Below, one piece after another: positions 6,960 to 61,910 of a stretch of 64,000 nucleotides of DNA. The DNA comes from a plasmid. The notes under the pieces were generated by a model. That model saw nothing but the letters and a program-made list of their open reading frames with translations. It was not told the DNA's origin and searched no databases. Each line of letters opens with the position of its first letter. Position 1 is the stretch's first letter. The translations under genes were made by a program, and so were the position numbers. Location of the stretch: sequence record NZ_MK262712.1; one strand, given 5' to 3'.

Positions 6960-7950
6960 CGTACGATTTTTTCCGAATTCTGCGGGCTCCCCTAAAAGAC
7001 AAAAATTCAATTTCAGCCTCATTCAGTACACCCTCTCCTTTTTTCCGTATATAGAAGTCATACCATCGTTCGTAGGCGGCAACATTGATAGATTCAGATG
7101 CTTCCAGAAGCCGGGGGATATAATAAACCAGTTCTTCAAAGGCAATACTGCCTTGAGGGATATCAGAACGGCTCAGGCGACAAAGAAGGTTAATCGTGGC
7201 TCGAAGGTGATGCCACTGCTGTGCCGGGGAGGATGGGAGGGCGTTCATGCTTATCGGAAGTTCATGAGGAATTAAAGCAAGGATCTGATTTCCACTGGTA
7301 GACAGCTCACGCCGGTACTGGTGTAAAGTATGGTGTTTAACCTTCTTCATCATAGGATGGTAGATCCATTTTTTCGCTTCCTCAGAAACGAAAAGTAACT
7401 TTTCTATCGCATCCATCATCTTTATGCCTTCCCCATTCTCACGATATGGAGCGATGATACTTTCAATCCGAACGGCATCGATCTCCACCAGCGCCAGCTG
7501 GTCTGTTTGCGCTAACAGGTCTGGATTGGGCTGGATATCCTCCGACGTATCATTAATAAATATCCCGATTGTCGTATCGTTACATATCCCTGTGAGGTCA
7601 GCATTAAGGCCACAAACAACCCCACCACCAGCGAGATTTTTGAGGTTAACTATCCCTTTCTCCTTACCCTGCAGAAGATGAGGGAGAGCAAGGTATTTTT
7701 TTTCCTGTATTTTCACCTTTATGTATTTTTTTATATGTTGTAGTGTGAGCTCACTACAAACCCCTTTTACTTCTGTGCTGTGGCTAAAATGCCATTTTTT
7801 ATTTTGACCCTGCCTGGCAATCAGGGAGGTCCCACAGATGAGGCAGATACAGTTACACGAAAGCCCATTTTCAACGCTGGCGATATCAACAATTTTATTT
7901 GAATCCGTATCAAATCCAAACGGGATCCATTTTTGTGCATTACGTCGCAT
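6871..7950 (-). CDS. CoiA-like competence-family protein. Its C-terminus is replaced by read-through into the transposon IR; the native portion is about 6993-7950.
   Basis: N-terminus ...[48 protein letters not shown] shows a CoiA-like Cys cluster followed by an HF-H motif. It is AT-rich like the backbone. The ORF tail overlaps the 38-bp IR. It carries one copy of the backbone palindrome, at 7392. Confidence 0.5.
6955..6992 (-). repeat. 38-bp terminal inverted repeat of a Tn1721-like (Tn3-family) transposon. It marks the right boundary of the resistance mosaic.
   Basis: The reverse complement reads GGGGAGCCCGCAGAATTCGGAAAAAATCGTACGCTAAG. Confidence 0.7.
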
Positions 7951-8035
7951 GTATATTCCTCGTTAAAAATGAGTAAAGGAATTCTACATCATCCGTTTTT
8001 ATCAAACCTGGAATAACAGCGTCTAATTACATTAT

Positions 8036-8290
8036 TCATATCTCATCGGGGATGAGATGCCACACGGAAGCAGGTATTTTGTCATAGTTTTTTTTCATGT
8101 AGATCTCAGCCCTGCGGTGATCATAAGCTCCGTTCAGGCTGGTTATCTTATTTATATCCCCACCTTCATCATTTAATTTATCCAGGATACGCTCAAACAC
8201 TCGGTCAAGGGTTTCAGTCGTACTGCACTTTCTGAACTTCAGGAGATAGGTTTCTCTCAGGCTACTGTGCGCATTTGGGCTTTTCAACAA
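8036..8290 (-). CDS. Small hypothetical protein (84 aa).
   Basis: An ORF only. It is AT-rich and has no recognisable motif. Confidence 0.3.
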   Translation of the reverse strand: MLKSPNAHSSLRETYLLKFRKCSTTETLDRVFERILDKLNDEGGDINKITSLNGAYDHRRAEIYMKKNYDKIPASVWHLIPDEI

Positions 8291-8438
8291 CGACGCTCCG
8301 GGGCATGTTCAAAAACACTGGCTATTTTCGAAAACAGTAAACGAAGTTCCACGCACAGGCAAGAGAAGCCATTTGATTAATTCACGTTCTGCCTGGATTT
8401 GAAAAAAAACAATGTTACTATACTGGTTATAAAAACAG

Positions 8439-10365
8439 TGTGCGCCGGGAGACCGGTAGAGATCAAGGGGTGAAAGTCCCCGACCATTGAAGGACCAGCA
8501 ATCCACAAGGTCCCCGAGTCATGCGTTGCATACCGCGAGGTATGGGGCGAAGCGTTGACAGGGGTGTTGACAGGCCAGCCATTGAGCCACGAAATGTATA
8601 TTAAATTACCGGGTGCCGACGTTGTACTGTTAACGGAAGGCAACATCATAGGGTGCGATACTGCGAGTGCCACATGGACCCGGCGGGGTCTGAGACCCTG
8701 GCATGTCAATACGATCTCTACGCGGGAACCGGGAGATCTCCCCTCTGACCATCTGCCAGTGTCGGAGATGGCCCGCACCGGGAAGACGAGGAGTCATAGC
8801 CGGTGATGTACGGAGAGGAGAAGTCGGACTCGCTCATAGTAGCGGCGAAACAGGCGAACAACCCGAAAGGAGCGGAGTCAGTGGAGCGAAGGAGCGGGGC
8901 CAAGGGGAACGCGGAACAGCCACACATGCGCCGGACACAGAGCCGGGAAAGCATGTCACAGAGGCTGTCACGCGTGCGGGAAGCTGCGAAGCAGCGGAAG
9001 AAAGAACGGTTTACAGCATTGTTCCACCTGCTGACAGTCGAAGCACTGGAAGCCGCATTCCTCTCCCTGAGCAGGAAAGCGGCCGCCGGAGTGGATGGCA
9101 TCAGGTGGATGGACTACGCCGGAAACATGAAGAACAACATAACAGATCTGCACCGGAGGCTACATCAGGGCAGCTACAGGGCGCAGCCCGGCAGGCGTCA
9201 CTACATCCCAAAAGCGGATGGAAAACAACGCCCGCTCGGCATCGCCTCGCTGGAGGACAAGATCGTCCAGTATGCGCTGGTGAAAATCCTGAACGCAGTC
9301 TATGAAAACGACTTTATGGGGTTCTCATACGGGTTCAGACCCGGGCGAAGCCAGCACGATGCACTGGACGCACTGGCCACAGGGCTGGTACGCACTAACG
9401 TAAACTGGGTACTGGATGCCGACATCAGTCAGTTCTTCGACAGGGTGAGCCACGAATGGCTGATCAGGTTCACAGAGCATCGGATCGGCGACCGGAGGGT
9501 AATCAGGCTCATACGTAAGTGGCTCACAGCCGGGACGTCGGAGGAGGGTCAATGGCGAGCAACGGAGGAAGGCACCCCACAGGGTGCGGTCATCTCACCG
9601 CTGCTGGCAAACATATACCTCCACTACGTCTTCGATCTGTGGGCGCATCAGTGGCGACGTCGCTATGCCACAGGCAATGTGGTAATGGTCAGATACGCCG
9701 ATGACATCGTCATCGGATTCGACAAACGATACGATGCCCGGCGCTTCCGTATAGCCATGCAGCGCAGACTGAGGGAGTTCGGACTCACGGTTCACCCGGA
9801 GAAAACCCGTCTGATGGAGTTCGGCCGCTTCGCTGCCGAAAACCGTGCCATCAGGGGAAAAGGCAAACCAGAAACGTTCAACTTCCTCGGGTTCACGCAC
9901 ATCAGCGGGAAAGATCGCAACGGCAGGTTTATGCTGATACGAAAGACCCGCCGGGATCGGATGACGGCAACTCTGAAAGCCATCAAAGACGGTCTGCGAA
10001 GGCGCTGGCATTACTCAATCCCCGAACAGGGAAAATGGCTCAGGAGAGTGGTTCAGGGATACCTGAACTATCACTCGGTACCGGGCAACTTCCCCACCAT
10101 GCAGAAGTTCAGGACACACGTAACAAACCTCTGGCGCCGGGCGCTCAGGCGCAGGAGCCAGAAGGATGATACGACCTGGACGAAAGCAAACAAACTGGCA
10201 GCCGCATGGCTACCAAGGGTTCGGGTTCTTCATCCATGGCCTGTGGAGCGGTTCACCGCCAGACACCCGAGGCAGGAGCCCGGTGCGTAAATCGCGCACG
10301 CCGGGATCCGTGCGGGGGGTATCCGGTAACGGGTATCCCTACCGCGACATCAGTGAAAAGACATG
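8439..10365 (+). mobile_element. Bacterial group II intron (ribozyme domains plus an intron-encoded protein). The 3' boundary is approximate.
   Basis: A GTGCG 5' start at 8439. A domain V-like hairpin GAGCCCGGTGCG..CGCACGCCGGGATC lies near 10290-10325, followed by a domain VI-like helix. A reverse-transcriptase ORF lies inside. Confidence 0.75.
8803..10290 (+). CDS. ltrA: Group II intron reverse transcriptase/maturase (intron-encoded protein).
   Basis: 495-aa ORF with RT blocks (…RHYIPKADGKQRPLGIASLEDKIVQ…, YADDIVIGF, FNFLGFTH) and a maturase X domain. Confidence 0.9.
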   Translation: MMYGEEKSDSLIVAAKQANNPKGAESVERRSGAKGNAEQPHMRRTQSRESMSQRLSRVREAAKQRKKERFTALFHLLTVEALEAAFLSLSRKAAAGVDGIRWMDYAGNMKNNITDLHRRLHQGSYRAQPGRRHYIPKADGKQRPLGIASLEDKIVQYALVKILNAVYENDFMGFSYGFRPGRSQHDALDALATGLVRTNVNWVLDADISQFFDRVSHEWLIRFTEHRIGDRRVIRLIRKWLTAGTSEEGQWRATEEGTPQGAVISPLLANIYLHYVFDLWAHQWRRRYATGNVVMVRYADDIVIGFDKRYDARRFRIAMQRRLREFGLTVHPEKTRLMEFGRFAAENRAIRGKGKPETFNFLGFTHISGKDRNGRFMLIRKTRRDRMTATLKAIKDGLRRRWHYSIPEQGKWLRRVVQGYLNYHSVPGNFPTMQKFRTHVTNLWRRALRRRSQKDDTTWTKANKLAAAWLPRVRVLHPWPVERFTARHPRQEPGA

Positions 10366-12369: not shown

Positions 12370-13124
12370 TTTTCCTCCAGAGGCTTTAATCTTAATTTGA
12401 CCACGTTAACCAGTTTCATTACTCCCGCCTCATCCGGTACGAAAATGTAACGACATCTCGGCCATGTCGCGTGTGTAAATATCTTACCAGCGGTGTTGAT
12501 ATTCAGAGGCATAAGCCTTTCAGTCTTACTCAACGGCATTTTCTCTATCGGGATCAACCCTGACTTAAAACTTTTTATCATTAAGTCGAGAGGGGTTTTA
12601 CAATCTTTATTGCTCATCGTTTCTGTGTAACGGATCATCCCGGCAATCGTTACCTGTATCGTTCCTATATCAGATTCGAATTTCGGCAGCACCGGCCAGT
12701 AAGGAATTTCAAAATCCACACTGGTAAGCGCCTGTTCGTAACCCTGCTCATTTGTTTCTGCAACCGTTTTAAGGCCTGGAAACCGGGCGTGCATAAATTT
12801 GATAATCTTTACCACATTGGGCGTGCTGGCCTGACGCTGATATATCTCTGGCAGCCATGTGGACGTGGTGGCCCATGTCGTGGTGCATGCATAAGTTTTT
12901 TGCTCCATATGCCATAAAATAGAGGTGTCAGCCAGGAAGTGATGAACAGTCAACAGCTCGGCCAGCAGCCGATCTTCATCTGGATGTGTTATGGCATTTT
13001 TGAAACAGACCTGTACACGAAAACGTTCTTTTGCAGACAGAAAAGTGTTTCCCCTACTGACGGCCACTTTGTATAACCTCCTGGCCGGATCAGCTTCACA
13101 AATCCCGGTTAAAATCCGGCTCAT
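12366..13124 (-). CDS. Hypothetical protein (252 aa). Its start is coupled to the upstream gene by an ATGA stop/start overlap.
   Basis: ORF with a 4-bp overlap to the 13121 gene. Confidence 0.45.
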   Translation of the reverse strand: MSRILTGICEADPARRLYKVAVSRGNTFLSAKERFRVQVCFKNAITHPDEDRLLAELLTVHHFLADTSILWHMEQKTYACTTTWATTSTWLPEIYQRQASTPNVVKIIKFMHARFPGLKTVAETNEQGYEQALTSVDFEIPYWPVLPKFESDIGTIQVTIAGMIRYTETMSNKDCKTPLDLMIKSFKSGLIPIEKMPLSKTERLMPLNINTAGKIFTHATWPRCRYIFVPDEAGVMKLVNVVKLRLKPLEEK

Positions 13125-14080
13125 TTTGACTCCCTGATGACTTCCACCAGCCCTATACGGGGCAGGACAGAACGATATTTTTCATTAAAATCGCCGCGCT
13201 TCTGCCTTTCACCTTTTACGTAATTTTTTAACGGATTAAACCGGCCCGGTTCGCTGAACAAAATTAATGGTAAAGGCGCGCGAAAGTTGAGTTTGTACGG
13301 CCCATGAACATCATCTGGATCTTCAGGACTGGTGTACCGGATATTGACGTTAACAGCCGGAAAGTTACTTTCCCGGATAAGCCGAAATTTTCTCAAATTT
13401 TCATCGTCATGACTCACTTCATCATTGAGCAACGACAGCATCATGATTTCTTCGGTTCGTTCCTGTTTCAGCCGTTCAACATCCTGTTTTGTCAGACTGA
13501 TATCCGGCTGGAGCTCAGTTATCTCCCTGCGTAAGCGGTCGATAACCGTTTCCAGCCGGGTAAATTTATGAATGACAGGGATTTGCCAGGTGAACCCCAG
13601 GGAGCGAATTTGCTCAGTAACGATCCGGATATTACGGGACACCTGTAAAGTCACCAGCCACGGGTAAACCTGGTGCAGAATTTCTGACCGGGAGTCCTGG
13701 TAATGAGTGATAGCTTTTACAGCATCAGCAAATTTGTCACGAAGCCGGTTGATTTCACCCACCAGCGACATCACCTGATCATGATTGTTTCTGACCACAA
13801 CGAACCCGGGGTATTTTCGGGTGATTTTGGTTGAATAATGCTCATCCCTGACATGGACTTTATCAACCCGCTGCTGCCGGTAAATATCCACCAGGGTGTC
13901 GACGTCGGGTACCGAATGAGTCACATTGATTTCCTGTGGCGGATTCAACTCCTCAACACTACGGGGCTCCGGGAGCGAGGCAAGGTAAGATGAGCCGATA
14001 TCGCTGTGACGGAGTAAACTGTGCAGCTCACCGAGTTTGCGTAGTTGCTCTTCGTTGTAATGGGCAAAGTCAGTATTCAT
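13121..14080 (-). CDS. Hypothetical protein (319 aa).
   Basis: A long ORF. It carries the backbone palindrome at 13361, embedded in a longer GGAAAGTTACTTTCC. Confidence 0.45.
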   Translation of the reverse strand: MNTDFAHYNEEQLRKLGELHSLLRHSDIGSSYLASLPEPRSVEELNPPQEINVTHSVPDVDTLVDIYRQQRVDKVHVRDEHYSTKITRKYPGFVVVRNNHDQVMSLVGEINRLRDKFADAVKAITHYQDSRSEILHQVYPWLVTLQVSRNIRIVTEQIRSLGFTWQIPVIHKFTRLETVIDRLRREITELQPDISLTKQDVERLKQERTEEIMMLSLLNDEVSHDDENLRKFRLIRESNFPAVNVNIRYTSPEDPDDVHGPYKLNFRAPLPLILFSEPGRFNPLKNYVKGERQKRGDFNEKYRSVLPRIGLVEVIRESK

Positions 14081-15294: not shown

Positions 15295-15889
15295 GTTCAC
15301 TCTCCAGATCAGGGATGAAGTCAAAGTTGTACGCAATCGCTTTTTCAGGTGATTCACCCGCGATGAGTTTTAACCAGGAGTAAGAGTCTTGCTGGTTAAG
15401 AAAAATAACGAGATACCCTTCATCTGCACTGTTTCGCTGTTTAATGAATTCAATCTCATTATCCATTCCGAAACCAAATGGCCCATGTATAACACGCGAC
15501 TGCTCTGGAAGCATTGAGCTGAACATTGATACCACGACTTCCCTCAGCTCCAAATTTTGGTGCGCAATAAAAGCCACTCTTTTACCTTCCTTAACGGAAG
15601 TTACAATTCGTTTAACACTCGACTTCACGTTATAGCGATACACAATCAACCGGAGCCGGGTCATGCAGAGGAAAATAATACATACGCAGCTGACAAGAGC
15701 CCCATAAGCTGAGCCTTCAATGAACCAGTTAAGGAATCCCAAAACAACCAGTCCCAAAAAAGTGACTATACTCAACAGGAAAATATAAAAGTTAATTTTA
15801 CGGTCTTTTGGATACCAGGTAGATGCAACGGCTATGATAGCCATTACGCCGACTAATGCATACATTGAAAGATCAAACGGATTACTCAT
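15281..15889 (-). CDS. Membrane protein (202 aa) with three N-terminal transmembrane helices and a soluble C-terminal domain.
   Basis: Hydrophobic N-terminal half. Confidence 0.4.
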   Translation of the reverse strand: MSNPFDLSMYALVGVMAIIAVASTWYPKDRKINFYIFLLSIVTFLGLVVLGFLNWFIEGSAYGALVSCVCIIFLCMTRLRLIVYRYNVKSSVKRIVTSVKEGKRVAFIAHQNLELREVVVSMFSSMLPEQSRVIHGPFGFGMDNEIEFIKQRNSADEGYLVIFLNQQDSYSWLKLIAGESPEKAIAYNFDFIPDLESEHETK

Positions 15890-16103
15890 CGATAGTCTCG
15901 CAATCGTGCCCAGGGCAGCCCTTGACAGGTGAAAATTCAGGGCATTCTTGAGTAGTTATAAGTCGCTCACCGGCGTTAAAGCGTATTTGTAAGTCACTAC
16001 GTAAAGCTTCTGCATTCTCCCCCCCCAAAAGGTAGAGCAGAAACTCATCATCAGCCAAAAGTAACTTTTCCAGGTCATAGCACTCGTGTTTGTAGTCCAT
16101 CAT
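15882..16103 (-). CDS. Small hypothetical protein (73 aa).
   Basis: ORF only. It contains a palindrome copy at 16057. Confidence 0.3.
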   Translation of the reverse strand: MMDYKHECYDLEKLLLADDEFLLYLLGGENAEALRSDLQIRFNAGERLITTQECPEFSPVKGCPGHDCETIDE

Positions 16104-16244: not shown

Positions 16245-16784
16245 TTAGTTCATACGGAGCATATGGTTCTCAACTCTTGCTATGAAGTTACTCATTGAGG
16301 GAAGGTTTAACTCGTCTCCTATGCGTTTACAGTCAAAAAGTGACTTTGCAGGGGAAAAGTTAAAGCCTTTATTATTAACAAACTCTAAAATCTCTTTCAG
16401 ATAGGAGTTTTTACTTCCGGCACTGAAGGTGTTGAGTAAAGGCCCACGATCTAAAAGTTCACCTGCTGCTTTTTTGGTCAACTTAATACCTTGTTTACTT
16501 ATCATCTTACAATGATAGTACTCAAAGCTTTCGCTACCTTCCCAGTCTAGAGACCTGGAGGAGTGAAACTCAGAAAGCAAAAGCAACATTGTGCCATGAT
16601 CACGAACAACATATAAAAATTCAAAATTACCATTTATCAACGCTTGCTTAACTAAGCGCAAATCTATCTCTATGTCGTAGTCATACCAAGGGCTATTAAC
16701 AAGAGAAGCGGAATGCTTCAGAATGAAGTGTTCCTTAACCCAGTTAAAAACCGATTCGATATCATAATCATAATAAACGTTCAT
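16245..16784 (-). CDS. Hypothetical protein (179 aa).
   Basis: ORF only. It contains palindrome copy 16337. Confidence 0.4.
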   Translation of the reverse strand: MNVYYDYDIESVFNWVKEHFILKHSASLVNSPWYDYDIEIDLRLVKQALINGNFEFLYVVRDHGTMLLLLSEFHSSRSLDWEGSESFEYYHCKMISKQGIKLTKKAAGELLDRGPLLNTFSAGSKNSYLKEILEFVNNKGFNFSPAKSLFDCKRIGDELNLPSMSNFIARVENHMLRMN

Positions 16785-52284: not shown

Positions 52285-53022
52285 CTAGAAAGAACTACCG
52301 GTAACCCCATTCGCCGTTACGCCTTTAGTACTACGTTGCTGCTGCTGCATGTTGTCACGAGCGCGTTCCTGAATTTCCAGTGGGACAATTCGCGCCGGAT
52401 TTTTTAATGCTGAATCACCTGCCACCCACGTTTGAGGCTTAACATTGACATATACATAGCCAGGGAGGTTCAAAGCGTCGTTATCGTCTGTGTAAGGCGC
52501 GATAAGCACACGCATAACTTTGCCTTGTCTTAACACAGCCAGCGGCTCAGGAGCGATAACAGCTTGTCTCGTACCCTGTACCTGATACTGACGCTCTTGA
52601 TATGAACTCAGCGTTGGGTTTACCGGCTTGCCATCAAATTCTGAATACAGTCCCTTTCCTGCTGGTACGCGCTGCTGCGACACATAACTCGCTGTTGTCA
52701 GCGGCTTCACCGGCTTAGAAGTTCCGGTGAACAAGGGTTTAGGGCCAGCACTTACTACCGGTTTCTTTGGGTACTGCACGCCCGGTGGCGGAGTCAACGA
52801 CGTTGGATATTTGCTATCTGCAATATCCTGCTTTCCCTCATCACCTTCCTTTTTTAAATATTTGAGATCGTCATGATTGTTAGTTGCTTCCATAATTGCC
52901 CGTGGCCCCATACACAGCACACCTTTTTCAATACCTGGGCAGCTGCTCTCAGATTGACCTATGCACCCTGATAAAGAAGACACCGCAGCAACAGACATGA
53001 GAAATTTCGTGATGTTGTTCAT
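52285..53022 (-). CDS. traV: TraV-like outer-membrane lipoprotein.
   Basis: Lipobox LSGC with a Pro-rich mature region. It is positioned just before traC, as in F/H-like operons. Confidence 0.5.
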   Translation of the reverse strand: MNNITKFLMSVAAVSSLSGCIGQSESSCPGIEKGVLCMGPRAIMEATNNHDDLKYLKKEGDEGKQDIADSKYPTSLTPPPGVQYPKKPVVSAGPKPLFTGTSKPVKPLTTASYVSQQRVPAGKGLYSEFDGKPVNPTLSSYQERQYQVQGTRQAVIAPEPLAVLRQGKVMRVLIAPYTDDNDALNLPGYVYVNVKPQTWVAGDSALKNPARIVPLEIQERARDNMQQQQRSTKGVTANGVTGSSF

Positions 53023-53031
53023 TTATATACC

Positions 53032-53889
53032 TTATTTGTTAAAGGGATTTTTAAGCAAAGGTTGTAAATTCAGTTTTAACCAGTTTTTATAATCAGTCGG
53101 TAATCCATTGCCCAACACTCCATCTTCACGAACTACAGATGGGATGCCTTGAACGTTATAAATGGATGCCAGGTATAGACCTGTAACAATAGGTTCTACT
53201 GAACAATCTTTCAGATTTTCATGAGGAATAAGCCGGTTGTTTATATCTTCTGATTTTCCTAATAACGACTGAAGAATATCATAATTGGTAATTTTACCAG
53301 CTTTAACAGAGCACCACATTTGTTTTACCCGTTTAGCTGATTCGCCAGGGCTGGGTAAAATAACAATATCAAAGCGAACAAGTTCCCTTTCTTCATTCAT
53401 CTTTTTCAGAAAGTCAATACAATCTTGACAATCAAGAGAAATGAATATAACTGCCTGTCGTTTGAGGGACGGATTCCCGAACTGGATAGTAAAGGCATCC
53501 TCAGGTTTGAACGGTGCTTCGTTCAATGGTAAAAAGTAACTTTCTCGGATATCTGATATCGATTGAACTTGTTTTTTCCTGAGAACATCATAAACTTTAC
53601 CTTCTGAAAAAGAGTAGCGACCCGTTGTGGTAACTAGGGTGAGGCCACTTCGCTGATCCTCAAATAAAAAAATCCCACCCGTCGGTAAGTAGACAGCATC
53701 CTTTGGCTGGTAAGGACTAAGCTTGCTAACTAATCCCCTTGACGACTGATTTAAAGCGAGACCATTTTCAGCAGCAGCGCGTGTTAACGCCGCAGCTTCT
53801 GCATCATACTTATCAGCTGCAGCAGAATGAGTTGAATTGAGTAGTGCTATACACACGAGCAACTTGATAAGTAACTTTCTCATAATCAC
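53032..53889 (-). CDS. trbB: Periplasmic thiol:disulfide interchange protein of the DsbC/TrbB type.
   Basis: Signal peptide and a thioredoxin CxxC motif (SLDCQDCIDF). Confidence 0.6.
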   Translation of the reverse strand: MIMRKLLIKLLVCIALLNSTHSAAADKYDAEAAALTRAAAENGLALNQSSRGLVSKLSPYQPKDAVYLPTGGIFLFEDQRSGLTLVTTTGRYSFSEGKVYDVLRKKQVQSISDIRESYFLPLNEAPFKPEDAFTIQFGNPSLKRQAVIFISLDCQDCIDFLKKMNEERELVRFDIVILPSPGESAKRVKQMWCSVKAGKITNYDILQSLLGKSEDINNRLIPHENLKDCSVEPIVTGLYLASIYNVQGIPSVVREDGVLGNGLPTDYKNWLKLNLQPLLKNPFNK

Positions 53890-54350
53890 TGTTTACCCTC
53901 AAAATATTTAGGGTCTATACCATATTCAGTCAGTTCGCTTTCTACTTCTGATTCATCTATGTAAGCTACTTCATTTACTGTTGATGGTCGTGTAATGACA
54001 TAATTCATATCGAGCACCAGGAAATCACGTGCCCGGTAAAGTGCCATCAACTTGCGAATATAAGGGAGATAACCTTCACCTTTTCCATTGTGTGCTTTTA
54101 AATACTGTTCATTTAAAGCAGAAGGGTTAAGAACGGCAATTTTTACGCTCTTATGAAACAGTCCTACTCCTTCATTCATTCTCTTCCCAATATACACTGA
54201 AATACATACCAGGATAGCGACGACAATGATGATTTTAACAGCCTTTTCGACTAAAGAATAAGACAGTGAGAATGTCAGGCTTTTCTGTTCGCTTGACACT
54301 TTTTCAAAATCAGCGTCATGTTGGTCTTCATCTTTAACTGGTTGAGTCAT
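53886..54350 (-). CDS. Small bitopic membrane protein (154 aa).
   Basis: Single TM segment IIIVVAILVCISVYIG. Confidence 0.35.
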   Translation of the reverse strand: MTQPVKDEDQHDADFEKVSSEQKSLTFSLSYSLVEKAVKIIIVVAILVCISVYIGKRMNEGVGLFHKSVKIAVLNPSALNEQYLKAHNGKGEGYLPYIRKLMALYRARDFLVLDMNYVITRPSTVNEVAYIDESEVESELTEYGIDPKYFEGKQ

Positions 54351-54352
54351 GT

Positions 54353-55723
54353 TTATTTCGCCGATAAATTGGTTGGGATGGATGCACCACTAAGAACGAC
54401 AAAAGTCGCATTAATACCCGGAGAAAGCTCTACAACTGGCCACTGCTGATCAATCATGTGGGTATACCAGTCTGTCAGCTTGTTTAATCCTCCTGAGACC
54501 ATACCGCTTGCACCCACAGCGCCAAGAGCACCAATATTAGGTCCCTGGTATTGTGCTTGTGAGTTAGGGTCGATATTCAACTGGCTAACTTTGCTTGGGC
54601 TCAGTCCCTGCGCCAGCGCACTAAGTCCACCTGCAAAAGCACTACCCATAATTGCGTTACCGTTTCTGGAGATAAGCGTACCTTTGATACCGGCTTTACC
54701 ATCGATTTCACTAACAGCGTATGCCTCCAATTTGATATCAAAGCTTTTGCCTTTAGAATTAACACAGCTCAGACTAGTTGTGCGGATATAGACTCGTTCA
54801 GAAGCCATATCTCCACGAGCAGTACCTAAGAGGTTGCAGTCACGTAGATCCATTCTGTAGTTATTGGGTAAAAACACATCGCGTTTAACCCTGAACGTTA
54901 CTCCCAAAGGTTCTTCTTGAGACGACAATGAGGTCGGCGCTTCAACACCTGTCACCAGAACTGCATACAGTTGAGACGTAGCAGGCAAATACTGGTCTTC
55001 AGCACGCTTTGAGTGGCGAGCATTGCTATCAACCGGCTTAGTACCATCTCCTGCGATAGCAGCTCCAGGTCCAGCTTTAACGACCCGCTTTTGATTCGCG
55101 TTAGTAATGTTCTTTTCAACAATTGGTGTGACTTCAAGAACACCGTTATTGGCCGTGGTAATGCTGTTGCTGGTTATAGTGCGTACCAACTGAGTGCGTT
55201 GAGGCGCAATCCCTCCTGCAACTGGTATTTCCTGATTGCGATTCCCTTCTGCATTACGGTTTAGCTGATAGGCTGGATTTTGCTGCTGATTTTCATAGAC
55301 CGGCTGGCCTACGCGGTTATCAAGACTACGATTGCTCGCAGGTCCCTTTCCATTCTGCATATCAGAGATCTGTTGGTTCAGTTGCTTAATTTGGATTTTA
55401 AGTTCAGTCAGCTCACTGGAATTTTCGGCCTTATATTTTTCCATTTGCTTTACCTGATCCAACATGTTTTGTTGATCTTTACGGTTTTCCTGCTGAACTG
55501 TTTGCAAAAACCTTTTCTGACCTTCTTCATCCATATTGACGATGGAAGAAGTGTCAAGCAAGTTAGTCACAGGCTTAATTTTTTTAGCTTTCTTGCTCGA
55601 ATCATCTCCGCCCATAAGCGTGATGGTTACCATCACAAGAGCCGCTAATGCTAGGACAAGCAAAAAAGCAATTCGAATTGCTTTATTTTCTTCCCACAAT
55701 TCCTTCAGCTTCAAAGTTTTCAT
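54353..55723 (-). CDS. traB: TraB (VirB10-like) T4SS core protein.
   Basis: N-terminal TM segment, a coiled/Gln-rich region, and a C-terminal VirB10-like beta domain (…SRNGNAIMGSAFAGGLS…). Confidence 0.65.
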   Translation of the reverse strand: MKTLKLKELWEENKAIRIAFLLVLALAALVMVTITLMGGDDSSKKAKKIKPVTNLLDTSSIVNMDEEGQKRFLQTVQQENRKDQQNMLDQVKQMEKYKAENSSELTELKIQIKQLNQQISDMQNGKGPASNRSLDNRVGQPVYENQQQNPAYQLNRNAEGNRNQEIPVAGGIAPQRTQLVRTITSNSITTANNGVLEVTPIVEKNITNANQKRVVKAGPGAAIAGDGTKPVDSNARHSKRAEDQYLPATSQLYAVLVTGVEAPTSLSSQEEPLGVTFRVKRDVFLPNNYRMDLRDCNLLGTARGDMASERVYIRTTSLSCVNSKGKSFDIKLEAYAVSEIDGKAGIKGTLISRNGNAIMGSAFAGGLSALAQGLSPSKVSQLNIDPNSQAQYQGPNIGALGAVGASGMVSGGLNKLTDWYTHMIDQQWPVVELSPGINATFVVLSGASIPTNLSAK

Positions 55724-56201
55724 TATATTGACCTTTATTACTTGGTGGTAAATATCTCTTTACCCTCAATGACCTGACCTTTTCATCTATCTGCGGTACA
55801 GAGTAAGGAGGCTCAGCCCGTAAATTTTTGAAAACGTTATTTTCGAGTTGCTCATAGAACTGACTATCACTATCCAGTTCAATGTGAGGCAACTCTATTG
55901 CCTGTTCATTGGTTTTCTGATCAAGTGTGGTGATGCTTTTTTCATCAAAACTTTCATCCGGTTTTGAATCAAAGCTACCCTTTCGAGTGAAATCCTTATC
56001 AGATAGCAATTTGTCAGAGTCATATACCTTAAAATCATCAAAGCCAGGGGGCGCTGATTCTTGCACTGTATATTCCGATGGCACAATTTGAACTATCGCG
56101 GTGCGTTCCTTTGCTAAATTCCCTATAAAAAACCCCATCCCTAGACCGACACTGAACAAAATGCCCCAAGTGAAAATTGAAAAGTTACTTTTTTTTGTCA
56201 T
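55683..56201 (-). CDS. Membrane-anchored hypothetical T4SS-associated protein (172 aa) lying between traK and traB.
   Basis: N-terminal TM segment. Palindrome copy at 56181, at its start codon region. Confidence 0.35.
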   Translation of the reverse strand: MTKKSNFSIFTWGILFSVGLGMGFFIGNLAKERTAIVQIVPSEYTVQESAPPGFDDFKVYDSDKLLSDKDFTRKGSFDSKPDESFDEKSITTLDQKTNEQAIELPHIELDSDSQFYEQLENNVFKNLRAEPPYSVPQIDEKVRSLRVKRYLPPSNKGQYNENFEAEGIVGRK

Positions 56202-57367
56202 TCATTAATCAGACTTGGTCGTTTAGTTACACGTGACTCCCGTTCCTGGTAAAGCTTGTCACGAAGGATATACAGCTCAGTTTTTTCACCCGGTTGTAAG
56301 AATGCTTTATCAAAGATTGCTGTAGCAATCACACCTGGTGTTATGCATTTTTGGTCATCAACAACCGATGGATATGTCAGTGTGTTTTGCACAAGAATGA
56401 CATCAACCAGTTCACGAGCCCCAATAAGACGTTGCCCAAGTTTTGCGTAAAAATTAAACCGGCAAGGGGATTTTTCGTTATTAGGTATAACCGAAAGTTT
56501 ATCTAGTTGGAGTGCAAAACCGGTAGGTACCTCACCGTTAGCAACGGGATAAAGAATATCTATTATCCTTTGTTTGCGGTCATCCTGAGCAATAGCTTTT
56601 TCGTCAAGCTCACCCGATTGCGCTTTTTCAAGAAGTTCTTTATTTGTGTTTTCAGCGATATGGCGATCACGTTCAATGGCCATGTTTCGCGTTAACTGTG
56701 TTTGAACACGAATCATAGCTCCCGGTACATCGATGGGGATCAATGTCAGGTTATATGTTGATTCAGGAACCCCTTCTTCGGACAACATGATACCTATAGG
56801 CGCATCTTTTACAGTTGTTATAAAGACACTGCCACCTTCTACATAGATGGTTGTATCTTCTGACGGTGCAGTTGTAGAAACGCTTACGTTCTTAAAAGTC
56901 GTCTGGATACGGTTTTGTAAACCTAATGAAACAGGGAGAACAATGTTTCCACCCGGCGGCACCGTGACGTTTTGCATTGGCTGATACCGTTTTTTTGCTT
57001 CGTTTACCGCTTTCTGCCCAGGCCCCTCAGAAGGGGTATTGTTCAACAGGGAATCGGTCATTGACCGAACCGCTGGTGAAGAAGCACTCGCTGGTGAAAG
57101 TCCGGGGGCAGCAGGTAGTGCAGTTGTCGGGCGGTTCGAATTAACAGGCGGCTGATTGCTGTCAATTGGTGGTTGATTAACAGCCACTGTCCCCGGAACT
57201 TGTTTAACTGCATTAGTTACAATATTCATAGCTTCGGCGGAATCTGGTGGTTCATCGAAAGCTTGTGTATTCACTGCCGACGCCGGAATACTGAACGGTT
57301 CATCTGCATGAACAAATGGAGCCAGCACGTTTAATGTGATTAGTATACCTAAGAGTTTTCTTTTCAT
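56198..57367 (-). CDS. traK: TraK (VirB9-like) periplasmic/outer-membrane T4SS core protein.
   Basis: Signal peptide. The position (after traE, before traB) and size are consistent. No strong motif. Confidence 0.5.
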   Translation of the reverse strand: MKRKLLGILITLNVLAPFVHADEPFSIPASAVNTQAFDEPPDSAEAMNIVTNAVKQVPGTVAVNQPPIDSNQPPVNSNRPTTALPAAPGLSPASASSPAVRSMTDSLLNNTPSEGPGQKAVNEAKKRYQPMQNVTVPPGGNIVLPVSLGLQNRIQTTFKNVSVSTTAPSEDTTIYVEGGSVFITTVKDAPIGIMLSEEGVPESTYNLTLIPIDVPGAMIRVQTQLTRNMAIERDRHIAENTNKELLEKAQSGELDEKAIAQDDRKQRIIDILYPVANGEVPTGFALQLDKLSVIPNNEKSPCRFNFYAKLGQRLIGARELVDVILVQNTLTYPSVVDDQKCITPGVIATAIFDKAFLQPGEKTELYILRDKLYQERESRVTKRPSLINE

Positions 57368-57368
57368 A

Positions 57369-58229
57369 TTATTGAGCTTCTGCTTCGTTCAGTTGCTTGT
57401 TCATATCGGTATTTTCAGTGAACTCTTTTTCCAATACCTTCCCGTTAACTGTGACTTTTTTGATATTAGGGGTCCCTGAATACTGGTTCAGATACAGTAT
57501 TCGAGGTCGCCCACTTTTCACACTCAAAACCATCTCGTAAGTCCAACGCTCAGTTTGTTCCTTATCAGAGACGTTTAGGAATTTAGTTTTGCGAGTACCC
57601 CATACATAAAGAACATTATCACTGGGTAAAAAGTTGACGTCCTCTGCAACAAATGTTTGATCAACCTTTCTTGCAAGCATTAAATCCGAGGCTTTTTTGA
57701 GTTCTGCTTCTAACTCGCTCTGTTTAGATGCCGGAAACATCTTAAGAATATAACTGGTAACGAAAGTAACATTTTTAGGGTTAATGTTCCCCAATGTGGT
57801 TGCTATAAATAGCCCCCATTGCGTCTTATATGACTCACTTGCCTTACTTCCGGCTACGGAAACTTCCTCAGTCATATCCGGAGGGATGGCAATGACCTCA
57901 GTTGTGGAAAAAAAGACCACTTTAATTACCAAAAGGCCAGCAATCACCGTCAATAATCCATTGTTTAAGATTAATTTTTTGTCACGCTGAATTAACTGAC
58001 TGTAGGTAAGTTCAGCACCCGTTTTCTTCCCTTTTTTAGGAGGCTCGAGTTCTTTTGACAAATTCAGGATGGACTTATGACGCTGAATTTTATCATTGCT
58101 GTAACTTTCAGTTTTTTCATACTGGACGTCGTCAGCCTCATCATCCTTTGATTTATCAACTGTCTTCTTCTTCGGTACAAACCTGAAGAAGTTCATGACG
58201 TTTTCTAAAAGTGACTTTTTCTCGTTCAT
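57369..58229 (-). CDS. traE: TraE (VirB8-like) bitopic inner-membrane T4SS protein.
   Basis: A single TM segment after a charged N-terminus. Gene order is pilin-traL-traE-traK-traB. Confidence 0.5.
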   Translation of the reverse strand: MNEKKSLLENVMNFFRFVPKKKTVDKSKDDEADDVQYEKTESYSNDKIQRHKSILNLSKELEPPKKGKKTGAELTYSQLIQRDKKLILNNGLLTVIAGLLVIKVVFFSTTEVIAIPPDMTEEVSVAGSKASESYKTQWGLFIATTLGNINPKNVTFVTSYILKMFPASKQSELEAELKKASDLMLARKVDQTFVAEDVNFLPSDNVLYVWGTRKTKFLNVSDKEQTERWTYEMVLSVKSGRPRILYLNQYSGTPNIKKVTVNGKVLEKEFTENTDMNKQLNEAEAQ

Positions 58230-58247
58230 AACTTCTCCGGGGTTAAT

Positions 58248-58550
58248 TTAGCTGTACAGCACTCTCATAAAGGGATCAGAGAAATATCGACTCTGGTAAA
58301 CAGTTCTTCCAGGAAGAAAACCATTCCACCAAAGTTTATGTTTCAATCTCCCCCGTACAGAGCTTTCCTTAGCTTTGTTGTATGAGACCCAGTAAACAAC
58401 TGCGGTTACTGTGGCTATCGTCATGCATTCAAAAATGTTCCCGAATGCCAAGAGTCCCATAACAACACCAATCTGCTTTGCATCAAAAAAGAGAATCAGC
58501 AAAGGTAAATTAATCCGGTACGGAAAGCGGTATGTGTAGTTATTTTCCAT
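58248..58550 (-). CDS. traL: TraL (VirB3-like) small membrane protein.
   Basis: 100 aa with a YRFP motif and two hydrophobic helices. Confidence 0.55.
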   Translation of the reverse strand: MENNYTYRFPYRINLPLLILFFDAKQIGVVMGLLAFGNIFECMTIATVTAVVYWVSYNKAKESSVRGRLKHKLWWNGFLPGRTVYQSRYFSDPFMRVLYS

Positions 58551-58651
58551 TCAGTTACCACCAGTAGTCATCATGCTCTCTATTGTACAGGTAATAAAAA
58601 GGGGACTTTCGTCCCCAAATTGTTGTTTTGCTCGTTTAGCAAAAATTTTTT

Positions 58652-59074
58652 TTAAAGCACAACACCCGCATCAAGGAATCCGGTGATGATTTTTTCGCCG
58701 TTAGCCAAAATCATCATCATAAGGAATGAAACGAGTGCCAAACCCGGGTTCGGACGGCCGATGGAGAAGTAGAATGCAGAGATCAGCATACATGCGGCCA
58801 GGGCCTTCCCGGGCGCGCCACTTAAAGCTTCTGAAAGTTGGGTCCAAATTTCACCCAAGGCTCCGTCATCCCCGCCCGCCAAAGCAATAGATGAGAACAA
58901 CGCAGCGCACAACAGCGCAATAAATACCTGGAACATTTTATTGCTAAGCATATTACGCAGGCTTTCAGCCAGAGTGTAGTTAGCAGTAGTGCCGCTCATA
59001 GCCATTGATTTCTGGATCATTGTGAAACTCCTGAATGCGAATATTGTATATGTGTTCTGGTGACTAACCAGCAA
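58652..59074 (-). CDS. traA: F-type propilin (TraA/TrhA-like). An alternative start is at 59020 (MIQKS…).
   Basis: A long leader, then two hydrophobic helices (…VFIALLCAALFSSIALAGG…, …LALVSFLMMMILANG…). It is the first gene of the T4SS operon. Confidence 0.55.
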   Translation of the reverse strand: MLVSHQNTYTIFAFRSFTMIQKSMAMSGTTANYTLAESLRNMLSNKMFQVFIALLCAALFSSIALAGGDDGALGEIWTQLSEALSGAPGKALAACMLISAFYFSIGRPNPGLALVSFLMMMILANGEKIITGFLDAGVVL

Positions 59075-59835
59075 TTGGAGAATACCCTGGGTTAATTTTT
59101 GATTTTCAAACTAAGGAACAAATTTTTTAAACAAAAAAGAGAAAACGCTGAAGTTATAAAAGTTACTTTTCAATGAGTTTTTTTCTTATCGACATGTCAT
59201 TATCAATTAGTTACAAAATTCGCCCTGTTTCATTCATTTCACTTTGCCAAAGAAAACATATTGATTTTAAAGTAGATTTTGACAACCTCTTTTCTCCCGT
59301 AATCCTTTTTATCCTCCTGTACATTCTTGGTTTCTTCGAAAAAGTCACTTTTTTGTCCATGCAAACACTGTTTTTGCGATCATAAAAGTAACTTTTGGAC
59401 CTGATAAATTACGATGTCCTTTAAAAAAGTGACTATTGGTCACCATCTTAATGTTCACTTCTTGAGCAAGGACAACCAGGGAGTTGAGAAAAGTCACTTT
59501 TTGGCTGTGATACAGTTCAGGTGTTAATTTTCCCCTTCCAGCTTAACTACCATAATTAGTGGGTCATCAAAAGAGGCGCACAGATCCTCCAAAAATGGTC
59601 CTAGAATGTAGAGAAAATGGAGAAATTTTGAATAATTTGTAACCCACATAACATATTGATCTTTAATAGTTTAATGTTATTTTTGGAATAATTATCTAAA
59701 TGACTACGGTTACACATAGCACTTTGGAACATAATCAGCTATAGAAGATAAAACTTATGCTTTTACCCTCTTCCCATGGGCCATTTCTAAATGTAAATTT
59801 AGGAGAATTCTTATGTTTGTCATGAAAGGAATATC

Positions 59836-60150
59836 ATGAAAAGTCGGATGGTAGAGGTCGCTGGGTTAAATCTTAAAATTACCATACATAACAACATGTT
59901 AGCTTTGAGTTATAATATTGACGGGCTCAGTATTTACAATTCAAGTCGTATTATTCGCAACTCAAAACTAACCGAATCTGAGATTTTCGCAAGAATTGAC
60001 GCTGATTTGGTTAGCAAAGTTTTTTCTGTAAATATCAAGCAGATAAACAACATCGTACACTCTAATGTCTGCGTAATACCTATACAGACTCAAGCTAAAC
60101 AGGTTAACTTTGCGGCTGGAGTAATGGCGTCTTGTTTCAAGAATTTCTGA
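59836..60150 (+). CDS. Hypothetical protein (104 aa).
   Basis: ORF only. Confidence 0.3.
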   Translation: MKSRMVEVAGLNLKITIHNNMLALSYNIDGLSIYNSSRIIRNSKLTESEIFARIDADLVSKVFSVNIKQINNIVHSNVCVIPIQTQAKQVNFAAGVMASCFKNF

Positions 60151-60294: not shown

Positions 60295-60963
60295 ATGTGG
60301 GTCACAAAAGATAATGAAATTATCTCAGATGCTGAACCGGATTCAGACGGTTTTATGGAAGTTCGCCGTCCATGCCCTGACTGTTTAGGTTCAGGTATAA
60401 ACTGCCTCCAGTGTGCGGGTTCTGGCTCATTGCCGGCTGTTATGGAAAAAGTATATCCTGTGTACGAGTGGGCTTCTAAAAACTCTCTACAGATGCCATT
60501 TAAATCACCTGAACAAGCACTTATTAAAAGCTTTCTTAAAGTTATTTTAGAGGCACCCAATCAGGGTAAAAGTAATTTTTACTCAGCACTCATCCAAAAA
60601 TTGGATAAAAGTTACTTTCCTACAAAGTTACAATTTCGATGTCTGAAACCTAATGGATATAGAAAAAGTTCAGCAGTCAGCCTTCAAGTACGGCCCTTTA
60701 CTGCCAAAATCGGTACCAAACTGTATCTGGCTCTCACCGTAATTAAAATTCAGGTGCTCACCAGAAAATGTTCTTCTGAGAGTTTTTCATCTTTACTTTT
60801 GGAGACCTCTGACCACCGGCATTTTATTGCTTATGATACGCACCCATCAGGGTTTATTCTTGGTAATATAATTAATTGCAATGTCCAAGTTGTTAAACGA
60901 CTCTGGGTTAATAATATGAGTATATTGCTGGTGAAAATGATTTCATCTTCTCTGATTAAGTGA
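60295..60963 (+). CDS. Hypothetical protein with a DnaJ-type CxxCxGxG zinc-finger pair.
   Basis: …CPDCLGSGINCLQCAGSGS…. Confidence 0.4.
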   Translation: MWVTKDNEIISDAEPDSDGFMEVRRPCPDCLGSGINCLQCAGSGSLPAVMEKVYPVYEWASKNSLQMPFKSPEQALIKSFLKVILEAPNQGKSNFYSALIQKLDKSYFPTKLQFRCLKPNGYRKSSAVSLQVRPFTAKIGTKLYLALTVIKIQVLTRKCSSESFSSLLLETSDHRHFIAYDTHPSGFILGNIINCNVQVVKRLWVNNMSILLVKMISSSLIK

Positions 60964-61018
60964 CAGTGGTTACCAAACACAAGTTATAAGTCTTTTAAAG
61001 AGGCAATACTTACTCGTT

Positions 61019-61783
61019 ATGAATAGTCATAAGAATTACAAAGAGTTAGGGTTATTGCAGGATTTTTTTAGAAAAAACCATAAAGCTACCTTTAATTGTG
61101 ATCAAAATAAAGTTGAGATCACCTCTAGTGATATCACTCCACTTCTTGTTAAAGGTAAAAGTAACTTTCAACAGGCTAAGTTTTGTTTATCCGGACCGGT
61201 GATGCATTTACGGTATCAACCTTTATGGTTTGCTATTTTGCTGGGACTGAACGCTAGACAACCAATCCATCAAGAACTTCAGTTCAGTATTTCACTTGTT
61301 GAACTTATAGAAAAATCGGGACGTGTTTGTCAGGCACTCGGAATCAGGCAAGTCAACTATACACTTGCTGAAGTTTCTTACTTTTTGTTGCTACTCATAG
61401 AGTTCAGAATCGAGATACAAAAAAGTAATATCTGTCAGACCTGTTCGGTTTTTACAGAAATCAGTCACGATATAGATTTTCAGTCTATCAGCATGGCTAG
61501 TGTTACTATCAATCCTAGAGTGGTTGACAAACTTTGGGAACTGACTAATTCGGCGTCAGTTTTTTTGACAACTCTCTTTTTTGCCAAGCGCCCGGAACTA
61601 TACAGCCTACTGCAAAAGTTACTTTCAAAAACTGAAGAGGTTTCCCTTAGCGACATTGCTCCTGCAACGTTTCAACACGTACAGTTGTTATGCCGTCATG
61701 GCCTCGTCACCTACACTAAAAAGCATAAAATACTTGATATTCATAGTGTTAGTGTTTTAATTGAAGGCCTCCACCCATTGTAA
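61019..61783 (+). CDS. Hypothetical protein (254 aa).
   Basis: ORF. Two palindrome copies inside. Confidence 0.4.
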   Translation: MNSHKNYKELGLLQDFFRKNHKATFNCDQNKVEITSSDITPLLVKGKSNFQQAKFCLSGPVMHLRYQPLWFAILLGLNARQPIHQELQFSISLVELIEKSGRVCQALGIRQVNYTLAEVSYFLLLLIEFRIEIQKSNICQTCSVFTEISHDIDFQSISMASVTINPRVVDKLWELTNSASVFLTTLFFAKRPELYSLLQKLLSKTEEVSLSDIAPATFQHVQLLCRHGLVTYTKKHKILDIHSVSVLIEGLHPL

Positions 61784-61910
61784 ACAACCAGTAAAAGTAA
61801 CTTTCATAAAAAATTTACCAAACTGGCTTTTTTGACCACATAGCGAGAAACTTTTACAAAATAATACTGTACAGTCTAATTTCAGGAATGGTTCAGTCAT
61901 AGGTAAGAAA

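Follow-up and report, generated by a model that had tools for sequence, protein, structure and literature searches.

A near-invariant palindrome dispersed through the backbone of IncHI plasmids is under purifying selection and may be the operator of a plasmid-wide regulator

Why does an 11-bp palindrome, AAAGTNACTTT (AAAGT-N-ACTTT), recur within and between genes along a stretch of 64,000 nucleotides from the plasmid record NZ_MK262712.1 (the window, in what follows)? The original prediction had claimed about 31 exact copies and a chance expectation well below one; a sequence search found exactly 31, against a mean of 0.19 (standard deviation 0.39, maximum 1) in 100 dinucleotide-preserving shuffles of the window. 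We show here that the motif is non-random and promoter-biased, pan-IncHI in its distribution and under purifying selection, and we put at about 0.8 the probability that it is the protein operator of a backbone-wide system.

Enrichment and form of the palindrome

Over positions 40,000-60,000 the window matches Klebsiella plasmids of about 250-300 kb with 100% identity, the best match being NZ_CP098133.1, a plasmid assembled complete at 265,597 bp and typed as IncHI1B/IncFIB (pNDM-MAR type), MOBH and MPF-F, which was used as the whole-plasmid reference for the window. The window contains the Tra2 transfer region and adjoining AT-rich backbone, its first 7 kb being a resistance mosaic. There are 88 exact sites on NZ_CP098133.1, against 0.4-0.9 expected on the whole plasmid from Markov models of order 1-4. 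Every one of them is in the backbone, and two accessory blocks, at about 85-100 kb and at 139-176 kb, have none. The motif is the sole outlier among palindromes of the form X5-N-X5', the runner-up occurring four times, and its spacer is strictly 1 nt, with 88 copies against at most two for spacers of 0 and 2-12 nt. Since the 88 exact sites (0.4 expected) are accompanied by just 30 one-mismatch copies (11 expected), the element is near all-or-none. The enrichment holds against shuffled and Markov backgrounds alike.

As originally predicted, the motif is missing from the acquired DNA of the window. No site was detected in positions 1-7391, which include the resistance mosaic, nor in two further blocks:

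Window about 8.4-10.3 kb: group II intron, motif-free.
Window 28.3-31.9 kb: IS605-type block, motif-free.

The ltrA gene (group II intron maturase, WP_004178082.1) is annotated twice, at 8377-10290 of the window, where it is flanked by an hha-like gene and an integrase gene, and at 42159-43646 of the plasmid.

The extension of the symmetry by flanking A/T is also real, given that A-AAAGTNACTTT-T is the form of the majority of the 31 window copies (A at -1 in 23 of 31, T at +1 in 21 of 31), and the full element is the 13-bp A-AAAGT-N-ACTTT-T. Beyond 1 nt on either side of the 11-mer there is zero flank conservation among these copies, and such unrelated flanks indicate that the motif does not belong to a longer repeat or to a mobile element resembling miniature inverted-repeat transposable elements or repetitive extragenic palindromes. 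A trivial repeat source is thereby ruled out, and the view of the motif as a property of the native backbone stands, with the addition that it is under selection.

Some details of the original prediction needed correction. All 31 listed positions correspond to real sites, three of them being displaced by 1-2 nt (16058 instead of 16057, 20713 instead of 20714 and 32206 instead of 32208), and the 17-bp perfect palindrome AAGAAAGTAACTTTCTT exists but spans 19160-19176 and does not start at 19157. One-mismatch variants are present in larger number than had been listed, with 11 in the window (15759, 15788, 22077, 22630, 33181, 45958, 53868, 57763, 59426, 60538 and 60569), but AAAGTTAACTTT at about 46506, which had been counted among them, has a 2-nt spacer and is a distinct thing, that spacing occurring a single time on the whole plasmid.

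Conservation of the sites among IncHI plasmids

The IncHI5-like plasmid pKO41-SIM of K. michiganensis is syntenic with the window, with 81% nucleotide identity over 27 kb. Seventeen window sites can be aligned with it, and every one is intact in all ten specified bases, while the central N has changed in four of the 17 and the flanks of 50 nt on either side are 65-91% identical. With a divergence of about 20% per base, a 10-base word would be expected to survive with a probability of about 0.1, and retention of 17 out of 17 therefore indicates strong purifying selection confined to the ten specified bases. Upstream of the pilin gene no alignment is possible, yet the window plasmid and pKO41-SIM each have four sites there. 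Conservation of site positions in related replicons, which the original prediction had left to be examined, is thus borne out in a diverged plasmid. A different palindrome, AACAA-N5-TTGTT, occurs 49 times in a 47-kb stretch of pKO41-SIM, where it presumably forms a tandem array or iteron block.

The sites of the window are as follows (no strand is given for the palindrome; signs in brackets are strands of coding sequences, CDS):

7392-7402: exact site in the middle of a hypothetical CDS, 6883-7950 (-).
13361-13371: exact site within a Tus-like gene, 13121-14080 (-).
16058-16068: exact site about 40 nt into a small CDS, 15882-16103 (-).
16337-16347: exact site at the 3' end of CDS 16245-16784 (-), the next start lying about 239 nt downstream.
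19163-19173: exact site within CDS 18510-20627 (-), core of the 17-bp palindrome.
20713-20723: exact site at the 3' end of a DUF3150 gene, 91 nt upstream of the start of CDS 18510-20627.
25452-25462: exact site, intergenic, 147 nt upstream of CDS 24324-25310 (-).
26236-26246: exact site within a TrhI-type helicase gene, kept at orthologous codons of R27 trhI.
26554-26564: exact site within the same TrhI-type helicase gene, lost in R27.
32206-32216: exact site in an unannotated open reading frame, 31906-32277 (-), adjoining the IS605-type block.
33198-33208: exact site, intergenic, 359 nt upstream of CDS 33562-34410 (+), with the one-mismatch copy at 33181 lying 17 nt upstream of it.
37200-37210: exact site within traN/trhN, kept in pKO41-SIM and at orthologous codons of R27.
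38673-38683: exact site in the first codons of trhU (signal peptide MIRKLLLS), kept in pKO41-SIM; the IncHI2 trhU site is in the same place.
40016-40026: exact site in the first codons (about the first 12) of TrbC/trhW, kept in pKO41-SIM.
41731-41741: exact site within the large immunoglobulin-like (RSP) gene, kept in pKO41-SIM (central A to T) and R27.
43972-43982: exact site within the RSP gene, kept in pKO41-SIM and R27.
45063-45073: exact site at the stop of an htdK-like gene, 129 nt upstream of the RSP start, kept in pKO41-SIM.
45287-45297: exact site within CDS 45067-45603 (-), kept in pKO41-SIM.
46668-46678: exact site, intergenic, 245 nt upstream of the htdA homologue, kept in pKO41-SIM (central T to C).
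46992-47002: exact site, intergenic, 115 nt upstream of a Z-operon-like gene at 47112 (+), kept in pKO41-SIM.
53533-53543: exact site within the DsbC/htdT gene, kept in pKO41-SIM.
56181-56191: exact site in the first codons of an htdO-like gene (MTKKKVTF), kept in pKO41-SIM; the IncHI2 htdO site is in the same place.
58208-58218: exact site in the first codons of TraE/trhE, kept in pKO41-SIM.
59159-59500: intergenic cluster upstream of the pilin (trhA-like) operon, with exact sites at 59159, 59341, 59385 and 59490 and a one-mismatch site at 59426.
60608-60618: exact site within a CxxC zinc-finger-like gene, 60295-60963 (+), kept in pKO41-SIM (central T to A).
61158-61168: exact site within CDS 61019-61783 (+), kept in pKO41-SIM.
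61615-61625: exact site within the same CDS 61019-61783 (+), kept in pKO41-SIM.
61794-61804: exact site, intergenic, 112 nt upstream of the ParB-like gene, kept in pKO41-SIM; one-mismatch at -86 to -90 in R27 and IncHI2.

The motif extends over the other IncHI types. It ranks first among the palindromes of the IncHI1 prototype R27, with 46 copies (runner-up, four). No other X5-N-X5' palindrome is as frequent in the IncHI2 plasmid pS15 (two stretches of 50 kb, holding 17 and 12 copies), in 48 kb of IncHI1 sequence from pEQ2 (12 copies) or in the IncHI5-like region. More distant IncH-like stretches also carry it, with two copies in 11.5 kb from Photorhabdus and five in 21 kb of metagenomic sequence. 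Between the pNDM-MAR type and R27, whose proteins are about 30-65% identical (about 50% amino-acid identity in the comparison of intragenic sites), six of the 19 sites within genes recur at orthologous codons (those of trhI, trhN, rsp with two sites, trhH and a C5 methyltransferase gene) and the other 13 do not. Individual sites thus turn over, but their number and many of their positions are maintained.

Among the plasmids examined the motif is restricted to IncH-type elements, being found neither in an IncC plasmid nor in an Alteromonas MOBH plasmid. A scan of genome contigs for two sites 5-35 nt apart was uninformative, with nothing but scattered chance matches in unrelated phyla among the matches listed. 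Our searches of the open-access literature, including the topics of IncHI, TrhR/TrhY/HtdA and KorB/ParB-like proteins, found no description of the motif. The instance is new in its sequence, and unusual in its scale and in the conservation of intragenic sites, whereas a dispersed operator of a plasmid global regulator is a known kind of element.

Position of the sites relative to genes and promoters

Placement was analysed on the deposited annotation of the complete NZ_CP098133.1, which is itself incomplete. On this basis 52 of the 88 sites (59%) lie outside annotated CDS, against 21% expected (p = 2e-14), and 36 lie within them. The interval from -150 to -50 relative to the nearest start codon holds 26% of the sites (10% expected), eleven of which cluster at -107 to -132, and the enrichment around starts as a whole spans -150 to +50. 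Four sites abut a Shine-Dalgarno sequence, about seven fall in the first roughly 40 nt of a CDS (about +13 to +40), mostly in signal peptides (KKLLL, KKVTF), and the remaining sites are deep in genes. Gaps between sites are Poisson-like (mean 2.4 kb, coefficient of variation 1.03), which rules out a regular spacing. There are clusters upstream of the pilin operon (the four sites of window 59159-59500), upstream of an orphan ParB-like gene outside the window, called paralogue C below (five sites), and in the oriT/H-R region.

The sites in first codons encode Lys-rich starts of signal peptides (MIRKLLLS, IKKLLFS, MTKKKVTF and MKKLLLS; window 38673, 40016, 56181 and 58208, and plasmid 68543). At these loci a DNA site and a signal peptide are superimposed and conserved together, and the same is seen in IncHI2 trhU and htdO.

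With respect to promoters, the site centre is 27-31 nt upstream of a -35-like hexamer (TTGATG, TTTGAG or TTGCAG) at several promoters of the same orientation outside the window, and some other sites overlap such a hexamer. Distances from sites to predicted sigma-70 promoters peak weakly near +4, +33 and +51 to +61 nt. A module resembling a promoter, GGGG(C)TTGATG-N17/18-TATCCTGG, is common to several small genes of the same orientation outside the window (NZ_CP098133.1 16378-16500, 30482-30600 and 75038-75130), with the motif centre about 31 nt upstream of the -35-like hexamer.

The intergenic and promoter-proximal enrichment, together with positions kept in diverged plasmids, matches the behaviour of a dispersed operator, one of the readings offered in the original prediction. 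Because a classical activator needs fixed upstream positions, the mixed positions seen here are better fitted by a protein that occludes promoters, or by one that loads at the sites and then moves or spreads.

Candidate binding proteins and alternative explanations

The explanation that we favour is that AAAGTNACTTT, in its 13-bp form, would be an operator that a plasmid-encoded protein, acting as a symmetric dimer, reads in double-stranded DNA. The likeliest binders would be the orphan helix-turn-helix (HTH) proteins of ParB/Noc/KorB fold present on all IncHI plasmids, namely protein A and/or paralogue C, although we hold the chance that the binder has a ParB fold to be somewhat short of even. 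The dimer may nucleate at 50-90 dispersed sites, after the manner of KorB at OB (RK2), VirB at virS and BisD at bisS, and nearby promoters would then be affected from non-fixed positions by occlusion, by sliding or spreading, or through interplay with H-NS, the outcome being that most backbone operons would come under one regulator. Protein binding, the identity of the binder and the sign of regulation are what we infer in this scheme. The genes concerned are:

Window 61911-63089 (+): ParB-like protein A, 392 amino acids (aa), orphan ParB/Noc/KorB-fold protein with HTH, candidate binder, orthologue of R27 R0042.
NZ_CP098133.1, CDS 30603-31844, outside the window: paralogue C, orphan ParB-like protein of 413 aa, with an orthologue in R27 (92336-93541).
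R27 R0037: paralogue B, a further ParB-like protein.
Window 60295-61783 (+): two conserved genes of unassigned function, for a CxxC zinc-finger-like protein of 222 aa and a protein of 254 aa.
Window 45970-46428 (-): htdA homologue, 152 aa, isoelectric point (pI) 4.1, belonging to a known IncHI regulatory circuit (PMC7366339).

Protein A matches TIGR00180 (E = 7e-8) and HTH_ParB, both below cut-off, and a sequence search of the PDB returned B. subtilis Spo0J (6sdk) only, in an alignment that includes a GxxRxxA-like motif; no KorB-specific domain or sequence-level match to KorB was found in these Pfam and PDB searches. An AlphaFold2 model from a single sequence reached a predicted local distance difference test score (pLDDT) of 35, and a model from a 19-sequence alignment, with pLDDT of about 85-90 over residues 10-240, was used instead. 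The top 29 PDB matches of that model in Foldseek were all ParB, Noc, KorB or Spo0J structures, including KorB 8qa8 and 8qa9. Judging from the model, protein A is a genuine ParB-fold protein with an HTH, in agreement with the original prediction of a ParB-like gene at 61911. The perfect site 112 nt upstream of its gene is shared by the window plasmid and pKO41-SIM, R27 and IncHI2 having the one-mismatch site at -86 to -90. In R27, R0042, labelled merely 'partition protein', is among the most highly expressed genes, with a signal of 6132 units at 25 degrees C that rises to 20561 upon htdA mutation, and among the few non-tra genes still derepressed at 37 degrees C (microarray supplement of PMC7366339).

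Paralogue C has five sites within 575 bp upstream of its gene (NZ_CP098133.1 30029-30482), one of the upstream sites lying at -97 to -116, and each of ten out of ten metagenomic homologues, as well as R27, has 2-5 upstream sites. On circumstantial grounds it is at least as good a candidate as A, and the link between ParB-like proteins and sites is likewise circumstantial. In R27-like contigs the sites upstream of paralogue C are at -100, -217 and -334, in steps of about 117 nt or roughly 11 helical turns (R27 92113 and 92231); a tandem repeat behind this spacing was ruled out, given that Tandem Repeats Finder found nothing and the alignment shares the motif alone. Two metagenome contigs with paralogue C also contain CCCCCG-N4-CGGGGG 16-19 times, probably a repeat array and possibly the CRISPR (clustered regularly interspaced short palindromic repeats) array of the Cas6/DinG-type genes annotated at 34-40 kb of the reference plasmid.

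Between the pilin site cluster and the gene for protein A lies the pair of genes for the 222-aa and 254-aa proteins, syntenic with R27 R0039/R0040, for which a regulatory role may be supposed. The DnaJ-like zinc-finger protein (CxxCxGxG-CxxCxGxG; window 60295-60963 +, R27 42181-42888) adjoins ParB-like genes in all IncHI types, an arrangement that recalls the pairing of a ParB-like and a zinc protein in BisD/BisC.

Several observations weigh against a ParB-fold binder, and against the proposed mechanism in general. Sites upstream of a gene show that it belongs to the regulon, not that it encodes the binder. In protein A a GxxR-like 'QGNCRTRAA' is present, but the ENxxR-type motif of the cytidine triphosphate (CTP) pocket is not clearly kept in its sequence, that position reading LDGAKS in A and DGNR in homologues, and a CTP clamp is only a possible mechanism. 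The second helix of its HTH is SEMAVRQIISL in IncHI1B and SNTTIAALIRL in IncHI1/IncHI2, lineages that have one and the same DNA motif. Across lineages the conservation of paralogue C is no more than moderately better than that of A, and all candidate regulators are 30-36% identical, with none standing out. No ParA gene adjoins A or C. Finally, distances to promoters show no single sharp geometry and are too weak to call an activator or a repressor.

The closest known analogue is the KorB-OB system of the IncP-1 plasmid RK2 (TTTAGCSGCTAAA, 12 sites). Both elements are 13-bp perfect palindromes with an odd, degenerate centre, dispersed in near-identical copies over a conjugative plasmid that encodes a protein of ParB-CTPase fold with an HTH, although protein A resembles KorB at the fold level only. 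OB sites lie beside promoters, at a distance from them or far from any, and the mixture of positions on IncHI plasmids resembles OB classes I-III; KorB is a ParB-fold regulator that acts at variable distance from promoters (PMC11790492). The IncHI case differs in the sequence of the site, in having 46-88 sites instead of 12, on plasmids of 180-270 kb, and in its many conserved intragenic sites. The candidate ParB-like proteins of IncHI are orphans and not partners of the plasmid ParA, and no partner similar to KorA or TrbA was identified in IncHI.

Dozens of dispersed, near-invariant palindromes, many of them intragenic and bound by one dimeric protein, are also characteristic of Noc-NBS in Bacillus and of SlmA-SBS and MatP-matS in E. 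coli, and Noc is a ParB-fold CTPase whose structures are among the top fold matches of protein A. These systems are chromosomal, control division or segregation and show no promoter bias, whereas the IncHI sites are plasmid-borne and strongly promoter-proximal. VirB-virS of Shigella pINV and BisD-bisS of ICEclc are examples of orphan ParB-like proteins loading at palindromic sites, and they show that such proteins may act as anti-silencers or activators (PMC10770331, PMC12409273). VirB counteracts H-NS, and H-NS is likewise important in silencing IncHI plasmids (PMC10770331, PMC12409273, PMC7366339). As CTP clamps on mobile elements that alter many genes of the element they resemble what we propose, but they have few loading sites (two bisS on ICEclc), bisS has another sequence (GAGCTATCCCCnGGGGATAGCTC), and BisD requires the partner BisC. 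In the related MOBH/MPF-F elements IncA/C and SXT/R391, AcaCD and SetCD act at a conserved box upstream of many transfer operons. Those boxes number about 15-20 and are longer, degenerate and strictly upstream of promoters, while the IncHI motif is compact, near-invariant, often intragenic and absent upstream of the TrhR/TrhY-dependent F operon.

IncC plasmids, a sister MOBH family, show the same design. NZ_CP110899.1, which lacks AAAGTNACTTT, has a dispersed palindrome of its own, TTTCACATGTGAAA (up to ACTTTCACATGTGAAAGT), with eight copies in 39 kb, all intergenic:

NZ_CP110899.1 4541, 5620, 9204, 9663, 14978, 18314, 29358 and 32773: TTTCACATGTGAAA sites of the IncC stretch.

One copy is just upstream of an operon of parA and a KorB-domain gene. 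This palindrome is parS-like and different in sequence from the IncHI motif, and the ParA-linked KorB-domain protein is its obvious candidate binder, a pairing that IncHI lacks. It looks like a KorB-OB-type system, a design that seems common in this plasmid lineage, and a KorB-domain ParB with its own dispersed palindrome provides a precedent for a ParB-fold binder in IncHI.

The alternative that survives best keeps the dispersed operator and changes its binder, which would be either a plasmid regulator outside the ParB family (a small backbone protein, or the pair of zinc-finger-like and 254-aa proteins) or a host enterobacterial DNA-binding protein. We regard it as a serious possibility, although less likely than not. 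The evidence from selection and promoter bias is silent on the binder, the recognition helix of protein A is poorly conserved, about half of the backbone genes have no assigned function by annotation, and a GT-N-AC core is typical of many HTH operators. Nevertheless, no recognisable DNA-binding domain was detected in the other backbone proteins scanned, we know of no enterobacterial regulator with this consensus, the open-access papers found for the motif strings have nothing on a bacterial or plasmid regulator, and the restriction of the motif to IncH-type elements also speaks against this alternative.

A considerably less probable reading is that TrhR/TrhY, the transfer activators of IncHI plasmids, which HtdA counteracts, use the motif as their DNA box. 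The circuit is indeed plasmid-wide, given that mutation of htdA derepresses 139 of the 181 expressed R27 genes (PMC7366339). Sites are present upstream of the H/R divergent region and of the pilin (AC) operon in both R27 and the pNDM-MAR type, and some sites lie about 31 nt upstream of a -35-like hexamer, as an activator box might. However, the region upstream of the F operon, the standard TrhR/TrhY-dependent reporter, has no exact or one-mismatch site in either plasmid, nor has that of the R27 Z operon, and many sites lie beyond the promoter, whether at a ribosome-binding site, among the first codons or well inside a gene. With a pI of 4.1-4.6 HtdA is a strongly acidic protein, and the htdA homologue itself is unlikely to bind DNA. 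The TrhR and TrhY homologues are encoded in Tra1, outside the window, those of TrhY ending in CxxC-x14/15-CxxC (R27 109710-110222; plasmid 66032-66556), a C-terminal Cys4 pattern that may resemble the zinc site of FlhC; we presume that TrhR/TrhY may be an activator of the FlhDC/AcaCD/SetCD type found in the MOBH family. FlhDC/AcaCD-like activators are expected at long bipartite boxes and not at a compact 13-bp palindrome, which would count against this reading if TrhR/TrhY is of that type.

The original prediction had also offered a centromere-like role, in which the motif would represent dispersed parS-like sites of a plasmid partition system. The architecture is palindromic and parS-like, and dispersed centromeres do exist, for instance in the phage-plasmid N15, but this reading fails and we consider it very improbable. 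The ParA-linked ParB of the plasmid is P1-type (PF08775), and the centromere boxes of such ParB proteins differ from the motif. About 560 bp upstream of R27 parA contain no exact or one-mismatch site, ParA adjoins neither of the orphan ParB-like proteins, and 46-88 sites distributed in a Poisson-like manner over the whole backbone are unlike any known plasmid centromere.

Equally improbable is that the motif is the target of a modifying or cutting enzyme, such as an orphan methyltransferase, a restriction-modification system or a nicking enzyme, in spite of its near all-or-none character, of a GTNAC core resembling a type II recognition sequence and of the several methyltransferases and one type II endonuclease that these plasmids encode. 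Targets of restriction-modification are normally avoided, and here the motif is enriched about 100-fold; outside the motif, GTNAC occurs about as often as expected (825 against about 780, the 88 sites included). To our knowledge methyltransferase specificities are far shorter than ten specified bases, and a promoter-proximal bias would not be expected of such targets.

Still less probable is an RNA-level element, in which the palindrome would place AAAGUNACUUU in transcripts of either strand, often in 5' untranslated regions or first codons, for an RNA-binding protein. The sites that abut Shine-Dalgarno sequences and those at the beginning of CDS are compatible with this, but a perfect DNA palindrome has no reason in RNA, a 5-bp stem with a 1-nt loop cannot fold, and many sites are upstream of likely promoters or in regions of unknown transcription. 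An artefact of composition, of codon usage (KKLLL/KKVTF signal peptides) or of a hidden repeat family, as the AT-rich backbone and the Lys-rich signal-peptide starts might suggest, is effectively refuted by the expectation of less than one copy in shuffles and Markov models, the 59% of sites that are non-coding, the unrelated flanks and the invariance of the specified bases while the central N and the flanks diverge. The suggestion of an uptake-signal-like sequence fails as well. A relation to Tus/Ter was rejected on reasoning alone, as Ter shares only GTAACT and 88 palindromic Ter sites would block replication both ways.

Returning to an operator bound by a ParB-fold protein, the site density of one per 2-4 kb, with many sites within genes, raises the more speculative idea of a plasmid-wide 'chromatin', in which an abundant orphan ParB-fold protein (the R0042-type A and/or C) would load at about 50-90 invariant 13-bp sites and spread, so that the whole 200-kb backbone would be either silenced or protected from silencing by H-NS. 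We consider this doubtful, but if it were true, transfer, maintenance and leading-region genes would be coupled on a scale well beyond the 12 sites of KorB, and it could explain why one circuit (HtdA/TrhRY/H-NS) moves most R27 genes together.

IncHI plasmids are major carriers of multidrug resistance, among them R27/pHCM1 in typhoid, IncHI2 plasmids with mcr-1 and IncHI1B/pNDM-MAR plasmids in Klebsiella, and their temperature-dependent transfer and low fitness cost rest on a poorly understood plasmid-wide regulation. An invariant sequence, the probable operator, with 46-88 copies per plasmid and present in every IncH-type plasmid examined, offers a concrete and testable cis-element together with a short list of candidate binders. 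Should the binder prove to have a ParB fold, no ParB-like transcription regulator would be known to have a larger regulon, and the system would be a possible target for destabilising or silencing IncHI plasmids.

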